From contig JBDHWW010000020.1 of NCBI GenBank assembly GCA_039810425.1, forward strand, positions 1-61,936: a stretch of 61,936 nucleotides of DNA, given 5' to 3'. Positions 25,022 through 39,451 of this stretch are shown here, one piece after another. The position numbers and the translations under genes were made by a program. Below the pieces are notes generated by a model. That model was not told the origin of the DNA. It did no database searches and saw only the letters and a program-made list of their open reading frames with translations. The DNA comes from Pseudobdellovibrionaceae bacterium (lineage in GTDB: Bacteria; Bdellovibrionota; Bdellovibrionia; Bdellovibrionales; Bdellovibrionaceae). Position 1 is the stretch's first letter. The number at the start of each line of letters is the position of its first letter.

Positions 25022-28000
25022 CTATTTTTCCTTCTTAAACCGCGAGTACATCACCGCCAACAAATGACTTTCATCCACTGGCTTTGTCACGTAGTCCGAA
25101 GCCCCGGCTTCTAAACATTTCTCACGGTCGCCTTTCATGGCTTTTGCCGTGAGCGAGATAATCGGAAGCTGACCAAACTCCGGAATCTTACGAATACCGC
25201 GAGTGGCCTCAATTCCATCCATCTCCGGCATCATCGTATCCATCAAAACAAGGTCGGTGTCCGGGTTTTCCTTAAGGACCGCAATACCTTGCTTCCCGTT
25301 CTCAGCATAGATCACGTTCATGCCGCGCATTTTTAAAATGCTTGTCAGTGCAAAGACGTTACGAACGTCGTCATCGACAACGAGAATTTTTTTACCCGTA
25401 AAATCCGCATCCACGGGAAGGGACTCCACCTCACGCGGCGCCTCGGTTGCTTCAAGCATGCCCAAGACATCGCCCACATACTTCTGCGGCAAATAAAGGG
25501 TGAAACGGCTACCGTGGCTCGGCTCAGACTCAACCTCAATAATACCGCCCAAAAGACGAGCGATTTCGCGGCTGATCGTAAGACCCAAACCCGTCCCACC
25601 GTATTTACGGCTGGTTGTACCATCGGCTTGCTGGAATGCTTCGAAAATCAGTTTCTGCTTCTCGGGAGCGATACCGATACCGGTATCTGTCACACGGAAC
25701 ATAAACGTGTTCTTACCTTTCAGTCCGAGCTCTTCAGCGTGCTTTTTATCCGCCAAACCAATCTCAAGCTTCACGCTGCCTCTCTCGGTGAACTTAAAGG
25801 CATTGGATAGCAAGTTTTTAAGGATCTGCTGCAAACGGTTTTCATCGGTGAACATCGCTTTCGGCAAGTGCGCCCCCATTTCAACCTTAAACTCCAACGT
25901 CTTGTGTTCGGCCACAGGACGGAAGGTCTGCTCGAGGTACTCGAGCACGCTTTCGAGTTCCACCGCCTTCGGATTGACCGGCATTTTTCCGGCTTCGACC
26001 TTGGAAAGATCGAGGATTTCGTTGATCAGCGCCAACAAGTCCTGACCTGCCGAGTGAACCGTGCTTGCGAACTTCACTTGCTCGCTGCTGAGGTTCTTGT
26101 CGCGGTTTTCAGCCAACGTTTTAGAAAGAATGAGCAAGCTATTCAGCGGCGTACGAAGTTCATGCGACATGTTCGCCAAGAACTCCGATTTGTATTTCGA
26201 AATAAGTGACAGCTGTTCGGCTTTCTCTTCCAGGGAGCGCGACGCCAGCTCCACCTCTTGGTTTTTGACCTCGAGGAGCTTTGCTTTGTCTTCGAGTTCT
26301 TTCGCCTGAGCTTCCAGTTCGGCATTGGAACGCTTCAACTCTTGCAGAAGTTCTTCCGTTCTCATGCTTGACGAGATCATGTTCAGGATAACCCCGATGG
26401 AATCCATCAGTTGGTCTAAGAAGTTGATATAGTTCTGGGAGAACGTGCGAGTTGAAGCCAATTCGATCACGGCTTTGAGCTCACCTTCAAAGAGCACCGG
26501 CAACACGATCACGTTGCGTGGTTTTTCGTCGTGAAGGCTTGAGCTGATCACCACGTAGTCTTCTGGAGAATGAGTCAAAAGAATGCGTTTTTTCTCAAAC
26601 GCGCACTGGCCCACCAGACCTTCTTTCAAACGATAGCGGTTCGAAACGTTTTTGCGTTCGGTGAACGCGTAGCTTGCAATCAGATTCAAGCTTTGTTGCT
26701 CATCGGACTCTGTTTCAAGCATGAAGAATGTTCCTTGATGGGCATCCACGAGCGGTGTCAGCTCCGACATAATCAACTGCGCCACCGCAGTGACTGAACG
26801 CTGACCCTGCATCATACTTGAGAACTTCGCGAGATTGGTTTTTAACCAGTCTTGCTCCGTATTTTTCTGAGTCGTATCTTTTAAGTTGCCGATCATGAAG
26901 TTGATATTCTCTGAAAGGGCGGCAACTTCGCCTTGGGCTTCAACGGTGATGGAACGGGTCAAGTCACCCTTTGTGACCGCGGTGGACACTTCGGCGATCG
27001 CACGGACTTGAGCCGTCAAGTTGCCCGCAAGCTGGTTCACATTGTCGGTCAAATCTTTCCAGGTTCCCGCTGCTCCAGGAACTTTTGCCTGGCCCCCCAG
27101 CTTCCCTTCGATACCCACTTCGCGGGCCACGGTCGTAACCTGATCCGAGAAGGTTCTCAGAGTATCCGTCATTGAATTGATGGTTTCCGCAAGAGCGGCC
27201 ACTTCCCCTTTGGCTTCAAGCACGAATTTTTGATTCAAGTCCCCGTTGGCGACCGCCGTGACGACCTTCACGATACCGCGCACTTGAGTGGTCAAGTTTG
27301 AGGCCATAAAATTAACGTTGTCGGTTAAGTCTTTCCAAGTCCCCGCAACCCCAGGAACGCGCGCCTGTGCGCCGAGCTTCCCTTCGATACCCACTTCACG
27401 AGCCACGGTGGTGACCTGGTCGGCAAAAATTCTGAGAGTGTCGGTCATTGAATTGATGGTTTCCGCAAGAGCGGCCACTTCCCCTTTGGCCTCAAGAACG
27501 AATTTTTGATTCAAATCGCCGTTGGCGACCGCCGTGACGACCTTCACGATACCACGCACTTGCTTTGTGAGGTTGGAGGCCATGAAGTTCACGTTGTCGG
27601 TCAAGTCTTTCCAGGTCCCGGAAACCCCGCGCACTTCCGCTTGGCCTCCGAGCTTTCCTTCCGTTCCAACCTCTTTCGCCACGCGAGTCACCTCGGAAGC
27701 AAAAGATGAGAGCTGGTCGACCATCTTGTTGATAACATCTTTGATTTGCAGGATTTCACCGCGCGCATCGACGGTGATCTTTTGTCCCAAATCGCCAGAG
27801 GCAATCGCCGTTGCTACTTTAGAAACGTCACGGAGCTGAACCGTCAGGTTCGAAGCCATCACGTTCACGTTGTCAGTCAAATCTTTCCAAGTCCCGGAGA
27901 CCCCTTTTACTTCCGCTTGGCCTCCGAGCTTTCCTTCCGTTCCGACCTCTTTCGCCACGCGAGTCACCTCGGAGGCGAAGGAGTTCAACTGATCCACCAT

Positions 28001-30514
28001 CGTATTGATGGTGTCTTTCAGCTCCAGGATTTCGCCGCGGGCATCGACGGTGATTTTTTGTGAAAGATCGCCTTTTGCCACCGCCGTCGTTACTTTGGCG
28101 ATGTTACGGACTTGAGTGGTTAAATTATTCGCCAGACCATTTACGTTGTCGGTCAAATCTTTCCAGGTTCCAGCAACACCTTTTACATCGGCCTGACCCC
28201 CAAGACGGCCTTCGGTGCCTACTTCTTTCGCCACACGAGTCACTTCAGCAGCAAAGCTTCTGAGCGTGTCCACCATGGTGTTAATGGTATCTTTGAGCTC
28301 GAGGATTTCACCTTTCGCGTCCACCGTGATTTTTTGTGAAAGATCGCCTTTTGCCACCGCCGTCGTTACTTTGGCGATGTTACGGACTTGCGCGGTCAGG
28401 TTGCCGGCAAGACCATTCACATTATCAGTGAGATCTTTCCAAGTCCCAGACACCCCTTTTACTTCCGCCTGTCCGCCGAGTCGGCCTTCGGTCCCTACTT
28501 CTTTCGCCACGCGAGTCACTTCGGCTGCAAACGAGTTCAGCTGATCCACCATGACGTTAATGGTGTTCTTGAGTTCGAAGATCTCGCCTTTGGCATCCAC
28601 CGTGATTTTTTGTGAAAGATCGCCTTTTGCCACCGCCGTCGTTACTTTGGCGATGTTACGGACTTGCGCGGTCAGGTTGCCGGCAAGACCATTCACATTA
28701 TCAGTGAGATCTTTCCAAGTCCCAGACACCCCTTTTACTTCCGCCTGTCCGCCCAGCTTTCCTTCCGTGCCTACTTCCTTCGCCACACGAGTGACTTCAG
28801 AGGCAAAAGACGACAGCTGGTCGACCATCTTGTTGATAACATCCTTGATCTGCAGGATTTCACCCTTTGCTTCAACCGTGATTTTTTGTCCAAGATCGCC
28901 GTTCGCAATAGAGGTCGCCACTTTAGACACGTCACGGAGCTGAACCGTCAGATTTGATGCCATCGCGTTGACGTTGTCGGTCAGATCCTTCCAAGTTCCA
29001 GACACACCCTTTACATCGGCCTGGCCACCGAGCTTACCCTCGGTACCCACTTCCTTCGCCATACGAGTGACTTCAGCAGCGAAACTTCGGAGGGTGTCCA
29101 CCATGGTGTTAATGGTATCTTTGAGCTCAAGGATTTCACCTTTCGCATCCACCGTGATCTTTTGTGACAAGTCCCCGTTGGCGACGGCCGTGGTTACTTT
29201 GGCGATGTTACGAACCTGGGCGGTCAGGTTACCGGCAAGACCATTCACATTATCAGTGAGATCCTTCCAAGTTCCAGACACACCCTTTACGTCGGCCTGG
29301 CCACCGAGCTTACCCTCGGTACCCACTTCCTTCGCTACGCGAGTGACTTCAGAGGCAAAGGAATTCAACTGGTCCACCATGACATTAATGGTATTTTTTA
29401 ATTCAGAGATTTCGCCGCGGGCATCAACGGTGATTTTTTGTGAAAGATCGCCTTTTGCCACCGCCGTCGTTACTTTGGCGATGTTACGAACCTGAGCGGT
29501 CAAATTATTCGCCAGACCATTTACGTTGTCGGTCAAATCCTTCCACGTACCCGATACGCCTTTTACGTCGGCCTGACCGCCGAGACGGCCTTCGGTACCC
29601 ACTTCCTTCGCCACACGAGTCACCTCGGCGGCGAAGGAAGACAACTGATCCACCATGACGTTGATGGTGTTCTTGAGTTCAAAGATCTCACCTTTGGCAT
29701 CCACCGTGATTTTTTGTGACAAATCCCCCTTGGCAACGGCGGTCGTCACTTTTGCGATATTACGTACTTGATCCGTCAAGTTTCCAGCAAGGATGTTTAC
29801 GTTATCAGTCAAATCTCTCCAGATACCAGACGCACCTTTTACGTCGGCCTGGCCACCGAGTTTTCCCTCGGTGCCCACCTCTTTCGCAACACGCGTTACT
29901 TCAGAGGCAAACGAATTCAGTTGATCCACCATGGCATTGACCGTTGTACCGATACGGAGGAATTCCCCTTTTACGGTTCGGCCATCAATTTCCAAGGACA
30001 TCTTTTGTGACAAGTCCCCTTTCGCAACGTGGGTGATGACCCGCGCGACCTCGGTTGTCGGCTGCACCAGGTCCCCGATGAGCAAGTTCACAGAGTCGAC
30101 ACTCGTCGCCCAGGCTCCGCGAACAGTTCCCATGGAAACACGTTCCGACATCTTACCTTCTTGGCCCACGGTGTTTCGCACGCGCGAAAATTCATTCGCC
30201 ATGCTTTCATTCATTTCAATAATATCGTTAAGAACTTCACCGATCTCGGCGATGATGCCCTCGTGAAGCTGCGGCATGCGCACATTGAACTCGCCTCGAC
30301 GAACCGCCTTTACCGTAAAAAGCAGCTGCCGAAGCTGTTCATGAGCCGTATTCAAAGGGAAATCGCCTTTGGGAATTTCGCGATAAAAAGGCGTGTTCGC
30401 CATGGGAGGGGCGTTGAGTTTTTTGGACTTTGCAACACTCGCCTTTTGACTTTTGCCAAGCTTAGATTTTTTGAGCTCGCCATTTTGTGAAGACCTCACT
30501 GATGGTTTTTCCAT
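25022..30514 (-). CDS. Cytoplasmic poly-HAMP hybrid histidine kinase (HAMPn-GAF-HisKA-HATPase-REC; Nik1/group III-like)
   Basis: 11 W(K/R)DLTDNVN units of 92 aa plus one degenerate unit, [22 protein letters not shown], single C-terminal REC. Confidence 0.96.
26930..30150 (-). repeat. Intragenic tandem repeat, 276-bp period (HAMP units)
   Basis: ~12 units; 28320-28477 and 28596-28753 are identical by eye. Outer boundaries approximate. Confidence 0.9.
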
Positions 30515-30873: not shown

Positions 30874-31818
30874 ATGAAGTTTTTTCTGCATTTCCTTGTC
30901 TTTTTGAGCCTTGGTTGGCCCGCCTTTGCTAAGACAAAACACAAATCTAAATCACCGCTGCAAGCCGATGCCGTCTGGGTGGGAAAAGAACTCAAGCGTA
31001 TGGGTCTTTCAAAAAGCTATATTGCGGAATCAATGAAATATTATGAGCCGGCGAGCTTTGACTCGACCGTCACGTTGAACTTGCTCGGTTTCCTGCGCCC
31101 GGCCGGCGAACACATGAACCGCGTGAATGCCGAGGCCGTGCGCGAAACACAAAGTTTTGTGCGGAAAAATCAGCCGGCGTTTGATTTAGCCGAACAAAAA
31201 TACGGTGTGCCCGGCAATGTGATTTCAGCTCTGCTGTGGATTGAAACCCGCCACGGCGATAACCTGGGGAAGTTCCACATCAACAGCGTGTACTTGCACC
31301 TCCTGCAAGCGGACTTGAAAAAAAACCGCGTGCTCCTCACGAAACTAGCGTTTGAGAAAAATAAAAAAGAACAGCGCTTTACGAAGAAAGAGCTGCGTAA
31401 GCTCATGGCCGAAAGAACCAAGAAAAAAGCCGCTTGGGCGCGGGAGCAGGTTCTCGCCATGGCCGGTATTCGTAAAAAGAAGCATCTCGACATCACCACT
31501 CTGCGGGGTTCCTACGCCGGGGCCTTTGGCCTATCGCAGTTTATTCCGTCGAGCTACATGGAGTACGCAAAGCCCGCTAAACCCGGCACTGTCGTAAAGC
31601 TGGCGGAAGCTCCGGATGCGATCATGAGCGTCGCTTATTACTTGCATCGCAGTGGCTGGAAGAGCGCAAACCCCGATTCCCACGTCGAGGCTTTGATGAA
31701 GTACAACAATAGCCGCGATTACGCCGACAGTATTTTGGAAATTTCAAGACAGGTTCTGGCCGCTCAGCCGACGGCCGCGAAAAATCGCGGTGTCTCTTCC
31801 GTGAATGAGAAAAAATAA
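30874..31818 (+). CDS. Lytic murein transglycosylase, MltB/SLT_2 family
   Basis: Signal peptide; WIETRHG (catalytic Glu), GSYAGAFGLSQFIPSSY, YNNSRDYA. Confidence 0.92.
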   Translation: MKFFLHFLVFLSLGWPAFAKTKHKSKSPLQADAVWVGKELKRMGLSKSYIAESMKYYEPASFDSTVTLNLLGFLRPAGEHMNRVNAEAVRETQSFVRKNQPAFDLAEQKYGVPGNVISALLWIETRHGDNLGKFHINSVYLHLLQADLKKNRVLLTKLAFEKNKKEQRFTKKELRKLMAERTKKKAAWAREQVLAMAGIRKKKHLDITTLRGSYAGAFGLSQFIPSSYMEYAKPAKPGTVVKLAEAPDAIMSVAYYLHRSGWKSANPDSHVEALMKYNNSRDYADSILEISRQVLAAQPTAAKNRGVSSVNEKK

Positions 31819-31964
31819 GCAGGCGCCGTCAAAACCACCTTAGGTTTGGAACAGGTCGCCAAAAATCTCGAGACCCCAAAGGCCGCCTTAAGAAGCTTGA
31901 ACTGACGCCCTCCACAGTTGAAATAAGTTGGTTTTTGGCGGACTAAGTGCTCTAATTTTCGCCT

Positions 31965-33590
31965 ATGAATCAAGAATATTTTGAATGGACCCTGTTATTA
32001 GCCCGTTGGTTGCACATCATCGTTGGTATCACGTGGATTGGCACCTCGATTTTCTTTATGTGGCTTGACCGCACATTCACGCCAAATCCCAATTCCAAAA
32101 ACGCCGGCCACGTGGGTGATCTGTGGATGGTTCACGGGGGTGGCTTCTATCATGTCGAAAAACTTTTGATGGGCCCCACCAAAGTCCCCGAAGAGCTTCA
32201 CTGGTTTAAGTGGGAGTCTTATTGGACTTGGATGAGCGGAATCTTTTTGCTCATCGCTATTTTCTACACCGGTAGCGGCACGTTCTTACTCGACAACAGC
32301 GTTTCAGGAATCACGTACTGGCAAGCCGTCGGCATTGGTGTTGGCTCGATTTTAGTTTCCTGGTTCTTTTATGACTTCCTGTGGGAATCAAAACTCACCA
32401 AACAAAAGCCCGTCATCGGCCACATTTTGACAATTCTCTGGCTTGCCGGAATGGCTTATTTCCTTTGCCATACCTTGAGCGGCCGTGCGGCTTATATTCA
32501 TATCGGCGCGATGCTCGGCACTTGGATGACGGCCAATGTGTTTCTCCGGATCATTCCCCGCCAAGTGAAAATGGTCGAGGCCGCAAAGAAGGGCGAACCG
32601 GTCCATCCAGACTGGGGTCAGAACGCGAAGAACCGTTCAACCCATAATACTTACTTCACCCTGCCTGTGATTTTCCTGATGCTCAGCAACCACTTTTCAC
32701 AAACCTATGGCAATCAGTGGAACTGGCTCATTTTACTTTTGATCAGTGCCGCAGGGGCCGCGATTCGTGAATTCTTTGTGGTGCGTTTGAAAAACCCGGC
32801 GCGCTCAAGAGCTTTTGCCGCCATCGGTCTCTGCCTCATTCTTGGAGTTGTCGTGTTTACACGCGAGAACACCGGCAGCACGGCCGCCGCTCAAGAAGCG
32901 CATCACGAGGCTCCTTCGCCTAAAACCGCAGCCGTCACGGCCGTTGCGGAGGGCACAGGGGGGGTGATGGGGGTTGTCAGCTTTAATGGCGACGCTCCTC
33001 AAACGGAAAAACTTCTTTTGCCGTTTGCATGCGCCTCTCATTACAACGGCGACGCCTATTCAAATGAGATTCTTATTAAAAATGGTAAGCTCAAAAACGT
33101 TCTCGTGCGTGTGGTAAAAGGCCTTGACGCCAAAACTTATACGGACGTACCGGCGGAGCCCGTCATCGTCGACCAAGTGGGCTGTCAGTACGAACCACGC
33201 GTGACCGCAGCCCGCGTGGGGCAAAAAGTGGAGTTCATCAATAGCGATGCGCTTTTCCACAACGTGCGTTCTATCACAACCAGCAACGAAGTGTTCAACA
33301 TTTCAATGCCGAATAAAAATGACCGCTTCACCAAAATCTTCCAGAAGCCAGAGATATTCGTGCAAACCAAGTGCAGTGTTCACCCATGGATGAATGCCTA
33401 TGTCGCCGTGATGGACCACCCGTTCTACAGCGTATCTAACGACCGTGGCGAGTTTGTGATTAAAAACCTGCCGCCGGGGCATTACACGCTAGAGGCGTGG
33501 CATGAGGTCTTTGGCACTCAAACCAAAGAAATCGATATCAAAGCCAACGACACGACCAAGGAAGAATTTGAATTTAAGAAAAAGGACTAA
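31965..33590 (+). CDS. puuD: PuuD-type integral-membrane urate oxidase domain fused to a cupredoxin-like (not cytochrome c) domain
   Basis: RWLHIIVGITWIGTS, LWMVHGGGFY, LHWFKWESYWTWMSG, SGRAAYIHIGAMLGT, RSTHNTYFTLPVIFLMLSNH. C-terminus has HNV...CSVHPWM and no CxxCH. Confidence 0.9.
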   Translation: MNQEYFEWTLLLARWLHIIVGITWIGTSIFFMWLDRTFTPNPNSKNAGHVGDLWMVHGGGFYHVEKLLMGPTKVPEELHWFKWESYWTWMSGIFLLIAIFYTGSGTFLLDNSVSGITYWQAVGIGVGSILVSWFFYDFLWESKLTKQKPVIGHILTILWLAGMAYFLCHTLSGRAAYIHIGAMLGTWMTANVFLRIIPRQVKMVEAAKKGEPVHPDWGQNAKNRSTHNTYFTLPVIFLMLSNHFSQTYGNQWNWLILLLISAAGAAIREFFVVRLKNPARSRAFAAIGLCLILGVVVFTRENTGSTAAAQEAHHEAPSPKTAAVTAVAEGTGGVMGVVSFNGDAPQTEKLLLPFACASHYNGDAYSNEILIKNGKLKNVLVRVVKGLDAKTYTDVPAEPVIVDQVGCQYEPRVTAARVGQKVEFINSDALFHNVRSITTSNEVFNISMPNKNDRFTKIFQKPEIFVQTKCSVHPWMNAYVAVMDHPFYSVSNDRGEFVIKNLPPGHYTLEAWHEVFGTQTKEIDIKANDTTKEEFEFKKKD

Positions 33591-33593
33591 GCC

Positions 33594-33917
33594 ATGATCA
33601 GCACTCACATTCTTGACACCAGCATCGGCAGTCCTGCGGCGGATGTTGCGGTTTCTTTGAAAAGAAAAGACGGCGACGCCTGGAAAGACCTTGGCAAGGG
33701 CGTCACGGATTCAGACGGCCGTTTCGTTTTTGACTGTGAAAAAGTCATCGGCACTTATCAGATTGTTTTTGATACCGGGGACTACTTTAAAAAATCCGGC
33801 CGCGAGAGCTTTTTTATGAACACGCCGGTGATTTTTAAAATCTCGGATGTGAGTCGTAAGTATCACGTGCCTCTCTTGTTAAACCCCTTTGGATACTCCA
33901 CCTATCGCGGAAGTTAA
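33594..33917 (+). CDS. uraH: 5-hydroxyisourate hydrolase (transthyretin-like)
   Basis: ISTHILDT, TDSDGR, YHVPLLLNPFGYSTYRGS; no signal peptide. Confidence 0.97.
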   Translation: MISTHILDTSIGSPAADVAVSLKRKDGDAWKDLGKGVTDSDGRFVFDCEKVIGTYQIVFDTGDYFKKSGRESFFMNTPVIFKISDVSRKYHVPLLLNPFGYSTYRGS

Positions 33918-33930
33918 GGCGGCGGCCGTT

Positions 33931-36900
33931 ATGTCTCAACGAGAAATCCCCTACTATCTGGACTATGCCTCTGAAAATCTTTTGAATTACTTGCAGCCGG
34001 AATTAAAGCCTGTTCCCGGCAATCCGGAACTGCAACAAGTCGGCAGCATGGGGGGCCTTGAAAGCCCCGAGTCCTTGAAGTTTTTGTGTGAACTTTACGA
34101 TGCGGTAAAGCCGGAACTGCAAAAAGTTCTTGAACAGCGGATTGTCGATCGCAAGTTTATCGATGAGCGTACCAAAGCCTGCTATGAGCTCAATAAGTCG
34201 TTAGGCATTGATTTCCTTGATCCGCGCTATCATACGGTTCTCGGCCAAGAAGATGCCGGGGGGCGTATCGTCATGGGCCCTAAAAATGATTTTTACTGCA
34301 AGCCCGGCGGCGGAAAGCCGGTCGCTGAGATTCCGAAATTCTTGCAAGGCAACCATGTGACGTTGTTCGGTCCACCCGATGATGCCAAACTTTCAATCAA
34401 CGCGATGAATGCCTACCACCGCAAGCTCCACGCTGAACCCGCAGTGGTGGCGGAGCTTTTAAAAACTCACACCAGTGAGGCCAAATGGGGTGCTGACGAC
34501 GAGGACTCCAAAACGCCCCTGCGCCGCGATTTGATTTCGGCCGGCGAAAACCTCACCGGATGCTTTAACAAAAACCTTCACTTCGTCGATCCAAAATCGC
34601 ATAAAGAATACCAACTCGAAAAAGAGCATCTTTCACTGCCGGTGAAACGATTTCCGGGGCTGGCGATGCCGTGCTTGTTCCTCTACTACAAAAACAACCC
34701 CTTGCCCTTGCATATGTATGATTTTGCGTTGCACCTCTTTGAACACTGGCAAAACCCGGAAGCTTTGGCATTCTATGTACCCAAACTCGAAACCGAAGAA
34801 GAAGCCCGCTACATCCGCCTCCTGATTGAGACCGCAGAGAAAATGATCGCAAAACTCCACCCGGCCTATCAGGTTGGTACGGTCCGCTTGTTGATCGTGC
34901 TTGAAAATCCACGCGCGGTTTTCCGCGTGAACGAAATCATGGATGAACTCTATCCGTACTTTGCCGGCGCTTCCCTCGGGTGGCATGACTACTTGGGATC
35001 TACCGCAAGACTCTTTAAAGAGGATGCGAACTATCGCATCCCGGTGAAGGCCGATCCGAACATCGTGATTAAATACATTAAAGGCTCGCATGATCTTCTT
35101 GCCAATGTCGTGGGTCCGCGCGGTGGGATTAAGATCGGTGGCATGTACGGCATTCTTCCCATCGACACCGACCTCACGAATCCCTCTTTTCAGATCACCA
35201 TGAAGGGCTTCATCAAAGACGTCATCACACAGATGAAACGTCAGCTCTCGGGTTTCTGGGTCGCCCACCCGGATTTTGTGCGCTTAGGCCTTGCCCTGAT
35301 TGAAGCGTGGAAGTTTCATGCCTCAGGCGATTCAAGCAAACTCGAGATGATGATTAAGTCTTTGCTCGAGCCAAAGTATCACAAAGAGATTTTGGATTTC
35401 GTTTTCGGTCCAGACATCCAGGGCCTTGATATTACGGACCCCCTTTATGCCCGCTCACTGATTGTTGCCGACATTAAGGAATCGACTTATATCGCGAACA
35501 ATCACCCGGAAGAAATCCGTTACAACATCTTCCAATCGCTTCAGTATCTGACCGACTGGCTTTCCGGAAATGGCTGCGTCGCCCTGCCAACGCAGATCGA
35601 AGGAATCCCCGCGCGCGTGATGGACGACCTGGCCACGGCCGAGCGATCACGTTGGGAAGTCTGGCATGAACTTCACCATGGCCGCTTTAGTATCGGCAAC
35701 TTTTTAAAAATCGCCCACGAGGAACTGCACTTTATCCGTAAGGATCTTTCAAACGGAAAAAAGATCGTTCAAGTGAAATGGAATGAACGCACGGAAAAAT
35801 GGTACCCGGTGGCCATGAATCTGATGCTTCACTTGATGACCAGCGATCATCCGGTGGAGTTCGCCTCTGAATTACTTTTGCCATTTACTTTAGATTCCAT
35901 CCGCCACTCGCAGGACCCTTGGCAAGCAGTGACGAAGATCGATCCTGTGAAGTACGCGATTAAACCATATGTTACGCGCTTTAATTATTACTTCTCGATG
36001 TGTGGGAGCCTCGCTTTTGCCACCGAAATGGCAAAGAACTTGACGGTGGATCTTGCGCAAACTGAAAAGTTGATCCGCCAGTTTGATATGGCTCAGATTC
36101 TAGAAGCCGCAAGCTTCCATGGGGATATTGGCGAAGCCAAGAAAACTCTCGATGCCATGGCCTCGAAAGAACAGGCCCTCGTTCATCAAGAAGATAAAGC
36201 GCTCCAAGAAGAGCTGCTGGTTCAGGGGAAAGCCTACCGCGAGAAGTTCGGCATGAAGTTTTTGATTTCAGCCCAGGGAAAATCCGGCAAGGAACTATTG
36301 ACGGCGCTGCAAAATCGCAGGAACAACTCGCTGGCGGCTGAAATGGACCATGCGCGCGCAGCGCTTTGGGAAATCACCAAAAAGCGCCTCACCGCTCATC
36401 CCATGAATCAGCTGCAAGATTTTATCACCGAGGCGCTGAAGCGCCACAACGTCAACGCCGCCCAGGTTTCAATTTCAACCGGCGAAGGTCTTTTACAAGA
36501 TCTGGCCTTCGGCCAGGCCACGACGGGGACCTGGTTTGAAGTCGCCTCGCTGAGTAAAACCCTCGGCAGTTGCTATGCGATGGAATACTTCCGCAAAAAA
36601 GGTATTCCGCTCACTACCCCCGTCAACGCGCTCTTCGCAAAAAGCTCCTCGGGCTTTAGGTTAAAATCCCTCAACCGGCAACATCCCGAATGGGCGGACC
36701 AAGTCACGTTGGCTCACTTGATGAGTCACGCCGCCCTGAACATGCATTATGTGATCGGCACTCCGGCAAACGAACCGATGCAAAATCTCAAGGAACTTGT
36801 TGAAGGCTCTGTCGGGGTTATCAACGAACCGGGCACGAAATTCCAATACTCGGGTGCAGGCTTTTTAGTGCTGGAACACCTTATTGAGGCGCTGGAGGGA

Positions 36901-38616
36901 AAACGTATTCAAGACCTCACTCGTCCGTTTTTGGATCAATTGGGACTGACAGACTTTTCATTTGAGCAAAAAAATCTGCCGGGAGTACAATACGCAACGG
37001 CCTATGATGTTGCGGGAGTTGAAATCCCAGGAGGCCGCAAGCTCTTCCCCGCTTTTGCCGCGGGCGCGATGGGGACAGCTCACGCCATCGAAGAATTCTT
37101 AACCGCCCTCACAAAGGCGTTTCATGGCGTGAAAGGCTTTGGGCCGATCTCGCATGATACGGCGATGCGGATGCTGTATGGAACAGATAAAGGCTGCCGT
37201 AAGTTCATGGGCACGAAAATGGGCCTCGGCATCTTTACCGCGGAAGCCGGACCGAATCGCCTCGCGATCCATCAGGGAGCCAACGATGGCTATCGTTGCT
37301 TGTTTGCCCATTGCTATGACGGTCCTGCCAAAGGCCAGGGCTTTACGGTTCTTTGCAATGCCGAACTCAACGGCGTGCTTTTCATCTCCGAAGTTGCGCA
37401 AGCTCTGCTGAAAGAATTCAATATCGCGGGCATTGACTACCGCCGCTTTAAGAAAACTTTCGTCAGTTCAGAAATTCCACAAGAGCAGATCGTCAACATC
37501 GGCTATCGTGATTTGATTTTCGATGCCTTCGAATCCGATTTGCCGGAAGAGATCATCGAAAAGGGTCCTCTTGATCCATTGGCGAAATACAATTTTGCGA
37601 TGGGTGCAAAGATTATCGAAACAACGAATCAAGGCTTTGCCCGCGCGGCGAATCTGCTATCGGACCATCTGCCGTTATTTGACCCGAAACTCTTTGGCCG
37701 CCAAGGTAAGATCATGGACAGCTGGGAAACCGTCCGGCACAACCAAAAAACCTGCGATGAGTTGGTTTTTGAATTGAAGAAACCTGCAGCGATCCACTAT
37801 GTCGCCGTTTCCACCAAGTACCATCTCGGCAATCAGGCCCAGTTTACAAAGCTTGAGGGCTTGAACGACGACACAAAAGCATGGCAGGAACTCATTCCAA
37901 AGACGGCTCTTGAAGGCCATGCACTGAAGCGGATGACAACGTCAACGGGTGTGGCGAAATTCCGCCAGATCAAGATGTCTCTCTATCCCGATGGGGGTAT
38001 TTCACGTCTGGGACTTTATGACGAGTCTTTGCCTGAAACGGAAAAATCCAAGTACGATTCACCGGAGCGCGCAAAGAGCGAGGTTTTTACGGATGAAATC
38101 CCCAAAACTCAGCGCTCACTGGCGCCGAAGTATGATGCCAGCGCCAAGGAGCTCGCCGCGAACTGGCAGGCCGCTGGGGATGAGGTCGATGTTGCGAGTC
38201 TTGCCTATGGTGCAAAGGTCGTGAAAGCGACGAACGAGCACTTTGGCCCCGCGGCTCAGGTGATTTCACCCTACCCTCCACTTCATATGTTTGACGGGAT
38301 GGAGTCGGCTCGCAGCCGTGACGAGGGGCACTTTGAGGAAATCGTCATTGAGCTTGCAAGACCCGCGGCAATTCATCGTTTGGAACTCGATTTTACGTAC
38401 TTTGTGAATAACAATCCGTTAGAAGTGTCCGTCGAAGGCCTGGCCGCCGGCGCCTGGATGCCCCTTGTTCCCCGCACCAATGTGAAAGCCTACGCGGCAA
38501 ATAAATTCACGATGGACCTTTCGCTGGCGGAAAAAATCACCCAAATAAAGCTTACGGCTTTTCCGGACGGTGGGATCAATCGGGTTAAAGCTTTTGCGCG
38601 AAGGGGTCCGCTATAA
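33931..38616 (+). CDS. Four-domain fusion: malate synthase / OHCU decarboxylase / beta-lactamase-family serine hydrolase / allantoicase
   Basis: One uninterrupted ORF. Malate synthase: FYVPKLE, WVAHP, WLSGNGCV, MDDLATAE. UraD: HGDIG, EQA, YREKFGMKFLI. Serine hydrolase: SLSK, YSG, HQG. Allantoicase: DSWET/PDGGISRL and DGMESAR/PDGGINRV. ATG 33931 preferred over TTG 33889. Confidence 0.9.
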   Translation: MSQREIPYYLDYASENLLNYLQPELKPVPGNPELQQVGSMGGLESPESLKFLCELYDAVKPELQKVLEQRIVDRKFIDERTKACYELNKSLGIDFLDPRYHTVLGQEDAGGRIVMGPKNDFYCKPGGGKPVAEIPKFLQGNHVTLFGPPDDAKLSINAMNAYHRKLHAEPAVVAELLKTHTSEAKWGADDEDSKTPLRRDLISAGENLTGCFNKNLHFVDPKSHKEYQLEKEHLSLPVKRFPGLAMPCLFLYYKNNPLPLHMYDFALHLFEHWQNPEALAFYVPKLETEEEARYIRLLIETAEKMIAKLHPAYQVGTVRLLIVLENPRAVFRVNEIMDELYPYFAGASLGWHDYLGSTARLFKEDANYRIPVKADPNIVIKYIKGSHDLLANVVGPRGGIKIGGMYGILPIDTDLTNPSFQITMKGFIKDVITQMKRQLSGFWVAHPDFVRLGLALIEAWKFHASGDSSKLEMMIKSLLEPKYHKEILDFVFGPDIQGLDITDPLYARSLIVADIKESTYIANNHPEEIRYNIFQSLQYLTDWLSGNGCVALPTQIEGIPARVMDDLATAERSRWEVWHELHHGRFSIGNFLKIAHEELHFIRKDLSNGKKIVQVKWNERTEKWYPVAMNLMLHLMTSDHPVEFASELLLPFTLDSIRHSQDPWQAVTKIDPVKYAIKPYVTRFNYYFSMCGSLAFATEMAKNLTVDLAQTEKLIRQFDMAQILEAASFHGDIGEAKKTLDAMASKEQALVHQEDKALQEELLVQGKAYREKFGMKFLISAQGKSGKELLTALQNRRNNSLAAEMDHARAALWEITKKRLTAHPMNQLQDFITEALKRHNVNAAQVSISTGEGLLQDLAFGQATTGTWFEVASLSKTLGSCYAMEYFRKKGIPLTTPVNALFAKSSSGFRLKSLNRQHPEWADQVTLAHLMSHAALNMHYVIGTPANEPMQNLKELVEGSVGVINEPGTKFQYSGAGFLVLEHLIEALEGKRIQDLTRPFLDQLGLTDFSFEQKNLPGVQYATAYDVAGVEIPGGRKLFPAFAAGAMGTAHAIEEFLTALTKAFHGVKGFGPISHDTAMRMLYGTDKGCRKFMGTKMGLGIFTAEAGPNRLAIHQGANDGYRCLFAHCYDGPAKGQGFTVLCNAELNGVLFISEVAQALLKEFNIAGIDYRRFKKTFVSSEIPQEQIVNIGYRDLIFDAFESDLPEEIIEKGPLDPLAKYNFAMGAKIIETTNQGFARAANLLSDHLPLFDPKLFGRQGKIMDSWETVRHNQKTCDELVFELKKPAAIHYVAVSTKYHLGNQAQFTKLEGLNDDTKAWQELIPKTALEGHALKRMTTSTGVAKFRQIKMSLYPDGGISRLGLYDESLPETEKSKYDSPERAKSEVFTDEIPKTQRSLAPKYDASAKELAANWQAAGDEVDVASLAYGAKVVKATNEHFGPAAQVISPYPPLHMFDGMESARSRDEGHFEEIVIELARPAAIHRLELDFTYFVNNNPLEVSVEGLAAGAWMPLVPRTNVKAYAANKFTMDLSLAEKITQIKLTAFPDGGINRVKAFARRGPL

Positions 38617-38629
38617 AAAATCCAGCGGG

Positions 38630-39451
38630 TTAAAGAGTGTGGCAGCTCACGCCTGGCACTTGGATTACGTCATCTATCTTAAGTGTTTGGTTTGAGTTCG
38701 CCGTGAGGAACTCACCGCCGCCCACGGAAGAAATATTTCTCAGGTACTTCGTCTGCGATTCAACGAAAGATTGAGAGTAATAATAAACCGTATTGAGGCT
38801 CACTTGGCCTGGCGCCAAAGCGCGGATCGAAGAAGCATCCGGAATCACATCGTCCGGGGTTCTGTAGTCCGTCGCTTGGCCGTCCGAGACCACCACCACC
38901 ACATAGGCTGCTTGTTGGGCCATGTTCGCCGTAAGGTCGGCGCTGATAATGTTCCTTGCCATATTCAAAGCGGCCTTATACGGGGTATTGCCGCTATCTG
39001 CGGTATTCATAAAACTGTTATAACCAGAGTTCACGACAGACATATCTTGCGAGAACACCCCATCGTTGCCCACTTTAATTTGAGCGTTTGCGGAAACACC
39101 TTGAAAAGAGATCATACCGAAGTAGAAATTGCCGCGGCCTTGATACGCGCTGATGAAATTGCTGAGTGTTGCTGAACGCCATTTCTTTTGGGGATCTGTT
39201 GCTACCGCGCCCCCTTCGCCGGCGTTGGAGCCTGAGGTATCAACGATAAAAAGGACTTTCACGATTTTGCTCGAACTCACTGTCGTTGGCCGGCACGTGG
39301 AATCATCCCCACCGTTATTATCGCCCGTGACCCCATTCAACGCATTGGCGTCCAAATCTGTTGTGAACTTTGCATTAGAGCAGTTTTGGAAAACGAGAAC
39401 CAACGAGAAAAACGTCACTCCGAGTGCTATTTTACCAAAGTTGATTTTCAT
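38630..39451 (-). CDS. Exported VWA-domain protein with FQNCS lipoprotein-like signal
   Basis: VFQNCS; VLFIVDTSGS (MIDAS), TPY, VSDGQATD. Start ATG 39451. Confidence 0.85.
   Translation of the reverse strand: MKINFGKIALGVTFFSLVLVFQNCSNAKFTTDLDANALNGVTGDNNGGDDSTCRPTTVSSSKIVKVLFIVDTSGSNAGEGGAVATDPQKKWRSATLSNFISAYQGRGNFYFGMISFQGVSANAQIKVGNDGVFSQDMSVVNSGYNSFMNTADSGNTPYKAALNMARNIISADLTANMAQQAAYVVVVVSDGQATDYRTPDDVIPDASSIRALAPGQVSLNTVYYYSQSFVESQTKYLRNISSVGGGEFLTANSNQTLKIDDVIQVPGVSCHTL

Follow-up and report, generated by a model that had tools for sequence, protein, structure and literature searches.

A four-domain fused protein of probable urate breakdown in Bdellovibrionota, with a candidate serine-based allantoinase

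Contig JBDHWW010000020.1 of a Pseudobdellovibrionaceae bacterium (assembly GCA_039810425.1), analyzed over positions 1 to 61,936 (hereafter the window), carries a single gene that codes for four enzyme domains in one chain. From the amino end, these are a malate-synthase-like domain (MSL), a decarboxylase of 2-oxo-4-hydroxy-4-carboxy-5-ureidoimidazoline (OHCU), a serine hydrolase of family PF00144 with the beta-lactamase fold (BLA), and an allantoicase with two repeats. The gene is the last of a three-gene unit on the same strand, puuD-hiuH-fusion, in which the first gene codes for a membrane urate oxidase (PuuD) and the second for a 5-hydroxyisourate hydrolase (HIUase). That the fused gene is real is practically beyond doubt, and it very probably acts in the catabolism of urate and ureides. 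Two steps of the route, allantoinase and ureidoglycolate lyase, are without a canonical gene in this genome, and two domains of the fusion have no evident place in the route. We argue here that BLA probably works as the allantoinase and we favor MSL as a malate synthase; on balance, the chain would then be a real enzyme with several functions in the aerobic breakdown of urate.

The fused gene and its relatives

The stop-free frame on the + strand runs from 33889 to 38616. The start codon is inferred: the probable one is the ATG at 33931, which is preceded by AAGG and lies 14 bases past the stop of the HIUase gene. The product of 1561 residues has no internal stop and has the length of an identical database entry (P0002). 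A first-pass annotation, made by a model from the letters of the window, had proposed a stop-free polypeptide of about 1560 residues with this order of domains; both length and order hold, and Pfam agrees with the proposed borders within about 100 bases. That annotation had also read the His (36118) and the Glu (36169) of OHCU decarboxylase as kept. Both codons are present, and the residues (His730 and Glu747), to which we ascribe a catalytic role, show at least 95% conservation across 98 non-redundant full-length relatives, as do the motifs FHG.IG and EQ of the same domain and, in general, the catalytic motifs of the four domains.

The OHCU decarboxylase domain matches PF09349 with 67.5 bits (cut-off 24; E 2.5e-18) over profile positions 39-154 of 155, and allantoicase matches PF03561 with 176 bits (cut-off 27; E 5.3e-52). 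In MSL, MS_TIM-barrel (aa 252-454, E 2e-18) and MS_C (aa 526-639, E 2.8e-9) are both over cut-off. On the other hand, the NCBIfam equivalog scores of all domains of the fusion stay under the curated cut-offs (UraD, 72 vs. 139; the allantoicase model TIGR02961, 190 vs. 278), which marks these domains, allantoicase included, as divergent.

Among the homologues in a large protein collection (7999 candidates scored, 636 passing E 0.001), the best 120 of the 636, which include the window's own protein, are considered here. The same five Pfam families occur in 119/119 of the others, at 59-84% identity and with lengths of 1409-1612 residues. Loci were further collected in genomes (one genome per species, the best 80 of 384 relatives) and in metagenomes (80 loci). 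In the genome loci, the four domains are in a single frame in 67/80, ten loci are cut by contig ends and three are split over two frames (one of the 67, L007, has an additional break within the MSL part). The single frame is present in 52/80 metagenome loci, and contig ends interrupt another 22. Two complete genomes carry the fusion, Bdellovibrio sp. HCB337 and Peredibacter sp. HCB2-198. As labeled, the carriers are Bdellovibrio, Bacteriovorax, Halobacteriovorax, Peredibacter and Oligoflexia, together with metagenome-assembled genomes (MAGs) of Phycisphaerales and Planctomycetia. In the genome loci, HIUase is found in 77/80 and PuuD, upstream, in 63/80, a recurrent order that bears out the earlier placement of the gene in the route from urate through allantoin, allantoate and ureidoglycolate to glyoxylate. 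In the loci of the Phycisphaerales and Planctomycetia MAGs, the HIUase gene is divergent, and PuuD was not found nearby.

A long frame may also arise from an assembly or gene-calling artefact that merges separate genes. The window stems from a metagenome-type assembly, the full stretch is spanned by the likely source contig only, and some relatives (L013, L019, L079) are in two frames. The likely source contig (X1) covers 33500-38700 with zero differences. The three other runs yield only pieces of 122-316 bases and add little. Against an artefact stand the single frames counted above in genomes and metagenomes, two of them in complete genomes, and the conservation of linkers as well as domains. 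Since independent assemblies have the same fused frame, we reject the artefact, whose probability is negligible.

The two-frame splits occur in some Bacteriovoracaceae and Halobacteriovorax assemblies (L019, L079, L013/L090; G107:C32). The pieces are of about 730-761 and 777-794 residues, with the break within the OHCU-decarboxylase part (in L013, 1012 and 541 residues). Equal lengths in separate assemblies suggest that the split may be real and not a sequencing error. In the family of the window itself, none of nine other sampled genomes has the fusion or any allantoicase. The gene is patchy within the phylum, which fits a gain by transfer. A scan of 31700-38900 for promoters and terminators gave sites no more frequent than in shuffled sequence, and a search for RNA data sets that contain the stretch listed none.

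Table 1. Positions of the genes, domains and conserved residues discussed (window numbering, except for the last three rows)
Feature	Position	Strand	Remarks
Fused four-domain gene	33931..38616	+	1561 aa + stop; open frame, five Pfam families
MSL domain	33931..35940	+	aa 1 to about 670; Pfam PF01274, PF20659
MSL R240	34648-34650	+	
MSL E325	34903-34905	+	
MSL W351-H352-D353	34981-34989	+	
MSL D566	35626-35628	+	
OHCU decarboxylase domain	36055..36390	+	Pfam OHCU_decarbox match aa 709-820; domain start probably nearer 35941
OHCU decarboxylase His730	36118-36120	+	
OHCU decarboxylase Glu747	36169-36171	+	
BLA domain (PF00144 serine hydrolase, beta-lactamase fold)	36403..37530	+	aa 825-1200; candidate allantoinase
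BLA S873-x-x-K876	36547-36558	+	
BLA Y973-S-G	36847-36855	+	
BLA H1114-Q-G	37270-37278	+	
Allantoicase, two jelly-roll repeats	37603..38601 (37603-38019; 38209-38601)	+	PF03561 in two stretches; genome search
PuuD-type (membrane) urate oxidase gene	31965..33590	+	541 aa; first of the three-gene unit; Pfam Urate_ox_N, E 3.4e-109
HIUase gene	33594..33917	+	107 aa; Pfam Transthyretin, E 3.5e-33; TIGR02962 124.7 vs. cut-off 87.45
DUF6986 gene of an unfused cluster	L165:10761-12113		
DUF6986 gene of an unfused cluster	L166:11071-12474		
DUF6986 gene of an unfused cluster	L167:10657-12036		

The serine-hydrolase domain as a candidate allantoinase

The known allantoinases have two unrelated folds, AllB/DAL1 (a metal amidohydrolase) and PuuE (a polysaccharide-deacetylase fold). 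The genome of the window (3.54 Mb, 149 contigs, 99.88% complete) has no match to PuuE. To the AllB model, its best match stays at 273 bits (cut-off 358) and was discarded, since the protein is a dihydroorotase (NF006559, 694 bits). Neither TIGR03178 (AllB) nor TIGR03212 (PuuE) matches the fused protein; the claim for BLA is that it probably works as an allantoinase, not that it is a member of one of these families.

The distribution of the genes in the phylum carries this assignment. A sample of 151 genomes was searched five times, and the phylum counts given below for the fusion, allantoicase, AllB, PuuE, AllA and DUF6986 are drawn from it. Allantoicase occurs in 30 of the 151 genomes, fused in 17 and as a separate gene in 13. 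In the fused genomes, AllB or PuuE over cut-off is never present (0/17), whereas AllB over cut-off is present in each of the genomes with a separate allantoicase (13/13), on the same contig and adjoining the allantoicase gene, and in no other genome. Both types occur within the families f13 and f16, so that the difference does not follow one deep split. The five genomes behind the Planctomycetota-labeled loci repeat the pattern, AllB and PuuE each being over cut-off in 0/5. With the fused carriers devoid of AllB and PuuE and the separate allantoicase accompanied by AllB, BLA probably supplies the allantoinase.

The order of the genes can be compared as well. The unfused clusters read PuuD, AllB, allantoicase, OHCU decarboxylase, HIUase and DUF6986; the fused ones read PuuD, HIUase and the chain MSL, OHCU decarboxylase, BLA, allantoicase. 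Matching of the modules leaves AllB and DUF6986 on one side and BLA and MSL on the other. As DUF6986 would belong to the superfamily of CitE and malate synthase (see below), AllB pairs with BLA. Within the fusion, BLA adjoins both OHCU decarboxylase and allantoicase, in line with the reaction sequence. A search of the DNA flanking 141 fused-type loci (2.16 Mb) gave no homologue of AllB, PuuE, AllA, DUF6986, ureidoglycine aminohydrolase or allantoate amidohydrolase, except for one amidohydrolase with 27% identity (L008).

The domain itself is a clear PF00144 member (73.6 bits, cut-off 27; E 2.2e-20; aa 829-1143). An alignment of 38 BLA domains shows S873-L-S-K876, Y973-S-G and H1114-Q-G without variation; we take these motifs to correspond to the Ser-x-x-Lys, Tyr-x-x and [K/H]-x-Gly motifs of the serine hydrolases of this family (class C beta-lactamases, DD-peptidases, family VIII esterases), and their invariance points to a working hydrolase. 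The AlphaFold2 (AF2) model has a mean confidence (pLDDT) of 95.8. With Foldseek, its nearest structure is the esterase IS11 (7spn; TM-score 0.73), followed by Pab87, LACTB, the R61 DD-peptidase, a D-amino-acid amidase and AmpC, with at most 23% identity.

Among 65 shorter relatives of BLA, nearly all are pieces with BLA and allantoicase or split forms. Protist data sets contribute four entries (P0316, P0256, P0273, P0288), each with BLA followed by allantoicase; one is from Incisomonas marina, one from Biecheleria cincta, and the others are an MMETSP transcript and a EukProt gene model. In the Incisomonas marina entry, EF-hands lie between the two domains, which argues there against bacterial contamination; the other three entries may be contaminants.

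Several points weigh against BLA as the allantoinase. Foldseek places the domain in the general family only, in no functional subfamily and with no specific similarity to a ureide amidase, and the ESM Atlas likewise returns generic PF00144 clusters only. The phyletic counts are from related genomes, many of them MAGs, and are a correlation rather than independent trials; for the five Planctomycetota-labeled genomes, no completeness is given. BLA could be an amidase or an esterase acting on another ureide, an enzyme that splits ureidoglycolate, or a structural or regulatory module, with an unrecognized allantoinase elsewhere. The high diversity of PF00144 enzymes leaves room for such roles; we know of no member of the family that acts on allantoin, and a literature search for a serine-hydrolase allantoinase found no paper. 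These roles would be at odds, however, with the invariant catalytic motifs, with a position that matches the reaction order, and with a perfect complementarity to AllB. Besides, spontaneous opening of the allantoin ring is slow. We thus hold another role for BLA to be somewhat unlikely, and an allantoinase probable.

The malate-synthase-like domain: synthase or lyase

The AF2 model of MSL (pLDDT 90.5) has as nearest structures in Foldseek those of malate synthase A (MSA; 3cuz and 3cv2, TM-score 0.81-0.83 by target length) and then those of malate synthase G. In E. coli MSA, we take Glu250 and Asp278 to be the Mg ligands and Arg166 to be the residue that stabilizes the enolate. Alignment with MSA of E. 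coli (3CUZ, with a constant chain offset of +1) equates R240 with Arg166, E325 with Glu250, D353 with Asp278 and D566 with Asp447, all at least 95% conserved in the 98 sequences. The paper on the E. coli enzyme gives Asp447 as the catalytic base, Ile94, Thr95, Gly96, Met102, Met330 and Pro369 as acetyl-CoA contacts, and Cys438 as an active-site residue alongside (Bracken et al., PMC3112382). At these contacts, MSL has Leu145, Phe146, Gly147, Leu154 (Met in most relatives), Met405 and Pro447, with Cys549 for Cys438 (residues 145, 146, 147 and 154 were mapped via MSA of B. anthracis, 3CUX). Five of the six pocket residues are thus identical or conservative, and they are fixed from Bdellovibrionota to Desulfobulbales and Myxococcota. 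In the 98 sequences, Met405, Trp443, Pro447 and Cys549 are likewise conserved to at least 95%.

MSL thereby shares with MSA (E. coli AceB) the fold, the Mg ligands, the catalytic Asp and Arg and most of the acetyl-CoA contacts, and it would use the glyoxylate derived from ureides. It differs in its identity of about 22-23%, in a length greater by about 150 residues, and at three positions: invariant Trp351 for Arg276, invariant His352 for Trp277, and Phe146 for Thr95. At Trp365, the tryptophan is kept and invariant (Trp443).

A homologue with another activity is known from zebrafish, and the comparison made here is an indirect one, with its marks as described in the main text of the paper. The zebrafish malate synthase-like protein (DrMSL) is a ureidoglycolate lyase and not a synthase (Dembech et al., PMC10120013). 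Its marks are R276I, W365M, an acetyl-CoA site without conservation, and a two-residue insertion at the interface between glyoxylate and acetyl-CoA; the group of such lyases is there confined to eukaryotes, and the activities are exclusive, NvMS being without lyase activity and DrMSL without synthase activity (PMC10120013). Like DrMSL, MSL is homologous to malate synthase and linked to allantoicase and purine catabolism; at the R276 position, it is altered too, but into Trp where DrMSL has Ile. In contrast to DrMSL, it keeps the Trp at 365 and the acetyl-CoA pocket. A loss of acetyl-CoA binding should let the pocket drift, as reported for the lyase; the pocket being kept, a synthase is favored. 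These residues lead us to favor for MSL a genuine malate synthase, one that depends on CoA and belongs to a new family of roughly 680 residues. A lyase activity, alone or in addition, stays a tentative option.

The following observations weigh against a synthase. The change of Thr95 into Phe146 is non-conservative. One of the two sites altered in the zebrafish lyase, R276, is altered here too, although into Trp. The score against the MSA equivalog TIGR01344 (129.5 bits) is far below the cut-off of 594.5, so that MSL is a distinct family and not an AceB ortholog. We did not find an AllA-type ureidoglycolate lyase in the genome of the window, which makes a lyase role for MSL attractive.

In its extreme form, the lyase reading makes MSL a ureidoglycolate lyase only, like DrMSL, and the four domains would catalyze four consecutive steps, from OHCU to allantoin, allantoate, ureidoglycolate and glyoxylate, with glyoxylate and two urea as products. 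There is the zebrafish precedent for a malate-synthase homologue turned lyase (PMC10120013), and the altered R276 position goes with it. Moreover, MSL (17), DUF6986 (12) and AllA (1) never occur together in the 30 allantoicase genomes, every one of which has one of the three, and neither AllA nor DUF6986 is present in any of the 17 fused genomes. The separate MSL gene of a metagenome cluster with allantoate amidohydrolase (L087, described below), which is without a lyase gene, is there the sole candidate to act after ureidoglycolate. On the other side, the complementarity to AllA rests on one genome; Trp365 is kept and the five pocket residues are (nearly) invariant from Bdellovibrionota to Desulfobulbales; and glyoxylate would be left without a recognized sink, since the genome of the window has no malate synthase other than the fusion (the sole match is the fused frame) and no glyoxylate carboligase over cut-off. 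We therefore consider a lyase-only MSL unlikely. The sole isocitrate lyase match of the genome is PrpB, within a prpD-prpB-prpC group, and was rejected as such.

A dual enzyme would split ureidoglycolate in the glyoxylate site and condense the glyoxylate with acetyl-CoA without release. The mixture of marks in MSL, with R276 altered, as in the lyase but into another residue, and the acetyl-CoA pocket and the catalytic Asp and Arg kept as in the synthase, would agree with it, as would the lack of another lyase and of another glyoxylate sink in the genome of the window. It is, however, purely deduced, and in NvMS and DrMSL the two activities exclude each other (PMC10120013); we regard it as more doubtful still. 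A synthase is thus retained for MSL in what follows, and malate is a plausible end product.

Members of the MSL family (about 680 residues) are also encoded by separate genes, in Desulfobulbales, Myxococcota, Bradymonadaceae and Mariniblastus. Among the loci collected, such genes are few and come from the metagenome scan (L085, L086/L087, L116, L153, L163), the best 80 of 384 in the genome scan being fused relatives only. Clusters with a separate MSL gene hold a canonical allantoinase (AllB, 516.6 bits, in L163; PuuE, 525 bits, in L087). The L163 cluster (L163:1611-12001) is fully unfused, with MSL (682 residues), PuuD, AllB, allantoicase, OHCU decarboxylase and HIUase; about 1.1 kb past the HIUase gene, on the opposite strand, there is a gene for a malate:quinone oxidoreductase, in keeping with a malate synthase. 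The L087 cluster (L087:2843-13339, of which L086 is a copy) follows the amidohydrolase route from allantoin, with PuuE, an ABC transporter, a gene of the Asp/Glu/hydantoin-racemase family, MSL (689 residues), (S)-ureidoglycine aminohydrolase, allantoate amidohydrolase and GntR.

In the clusters with a separate allantoicase, the place of MSL is taken by DUF6986 (PF22484, about 450 residues), which closes the cluster in 12 of the 13 genomes; the 13th (G041) has AllA. DUF6986 is also found in five further genomes of the phylum that lack allantoicase. A profile built from 14 of these proteins matches the CitE-like "citrate lyase" 3r4i (E 1.6e-4) and CLYBL (E 0.044). Against the MSL profile, it gives E 3.9e-4 with a probability of 35% in hhalign, and the probability with a single sequence, 2.8%, is too weak for use. 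From these profile matches, DUF6986 is probably an enzyme of the malate-synthase/CitE type in ureide catabolism. Counted in this way, 29 of the 30 allantoicase clusters of the sample include an enzyme of the malate-synthase/CitE superfamily, either MSL or DUF6986. A search of the literature found no mention of DUF6986.

The proposed route and its relation to known systems

The domains, their conserved motifs, the neighborhood and the absence of canonical genes are observed, and activities are inferred from them throughout, above all for steps 4, 6 and 7. In step 1, PuuD would oxidize urate into 5-hydroxyisourate, which the small HIUase would convert into OHCU (step 2). The OHCU-decarboxylase domain of the fusion would then yield (S)-allantoin (step 3). 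In step 4, BLA would open the hydantoin ring into allantoate via the pair Ser873/Lys876, an allantoinase activity from a fold that is not known to carry it. The two-repeat allantoicase domain would release urea and ureidoglycolate (step 5). The second urea and glyoxylate would form from ureidoglycolate in step 6, through a side activity of allantoicase, in the active site of MSL or by spontaneous decay; a reference cited in PMC10120013 has a title that names ureidoglycolate "a substrate of allantoicase." In step 7, MSL would condense glyoxylate with acetyl-CoA into malate.

Two points count against this scheme as a whole. Step 6 is without an assigned catalyst, and the source of the urate is not established, the genome having a single subunit of the xanthine-dehydrogenase family, below the cut-offs for xanthine dehydrogenase. 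The scheme modifies the one proposed in the first-pass annotation, with a span from OHCU to malate: domains and pathway support it down to glyoxylate, with malate plausible as the end, but the allantoinase and ureidoglycolate lyase steps had been skipped and the serine hydrolase had been given no role. We found no urease in the genome of the window, nor a urea carboxylase over cut-off. The two urea are thus apparently not a nitrogen source and, with no other recognized sink for glyoxylate, what the cell would visibly gain from the pathway is malate.

In the neighboring genes, some features can be added. The characterized PuuD has a cytochrome c domain C-terminal to the membrane part. In the PuuD of the window, a CarboxypepD_reg (transthyretin-like) match at aa 475-535 lies C-terminal to Urate_ox_N, and there is a weak amicyanin-like match at aa 410-482 (E 8e-4). 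On the - strand, 25022-30514 codes for a hybrid histidine kinase of 1830 residues with 12 HAMP stretches, GAF, HisKA, HATPase and a receiver domain.

Fusions of two steps of ureide metabolism are known, such as PucL and PuuE-UraD. Another is the "allantoin synthase" Urah-Urad of plants, diatoms and some bacteria (HIUase and OHCU decarboxylase), which, like the present protein, joins uricolytic enzymes of successive steps whose intermediates are unstable. It has two domains; the present fusion has four, leaves HIUase as a separate gene, and extends three or four steps further along the pathway. In the accessible part of a review of October 2026, Urah-Urad is the sole ureide fusion discussed, and the two-step fusion is considered for urate lowering (PMC13751858). 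Malate synthases in purine clusters also have precedents, yeast DAL7 and glcB of Paraglaciecola arctica, both mentioned in PMC10120013. With respect to AllB and PuuE, BLA would perform the same step, and AllB directly precedes allantoicase in the unfused clusters of the phylum; there is, however, no homology, BLA being a PF00144 serine hydrolase with a Ser/Lys pair and its carriers examined here being without AllB or PuuE.

The pathway and the habit of fusing its enzymes are already known; the extent of the fusion, a non-homologous candidate for the allantoinase, and the MSL family are new. Literature searches for the four-domain protein, for ureide genes of Bdellovibrio and for a bacterial malate-synthase-like lyase found no paper. 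The first-pass annotation, which knew of no description, is supported in this respect, but the architecture is present in public databases under uninformative names: the homologues are called "serine hydrolase" at NCBI and "malate synthase" or "allantoicase/malate synthase" at JGI, names that hide the pathway.

If the assignment of BLA is true, serine-hydrolase allantoinases would be a third type of this enzyme and would fill a gap in the 17 fused genomes and in the five Planctomycetota-labeled ones. The protist entries with BLA and allantoicase suggest the same there (allantoinase genes were not sought in those protists). With MSL and DUF6986, enzymes of the malate-synthase/CitE superfamily would be the regular last member of bacterial urate clusters, and they bear on the question raised by the zebrafish protein of what decides between synthase and lyase in such enzymes. 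As a natural single chain that covers three to five steps in the disposal of urate, the fusion may in addition serve as a model for engineered urate-lowering enzymes. In its widest form, to which we give even chances, BLA would found a third, serine-based class of allantoinases, MSL would be a new malate-synthase isoform for ureide carbon that may take ureidoglycolate straight to malate, and in predatory bacteria, planctomycetes and some protists three genes would suffice for the route between urate and malate.

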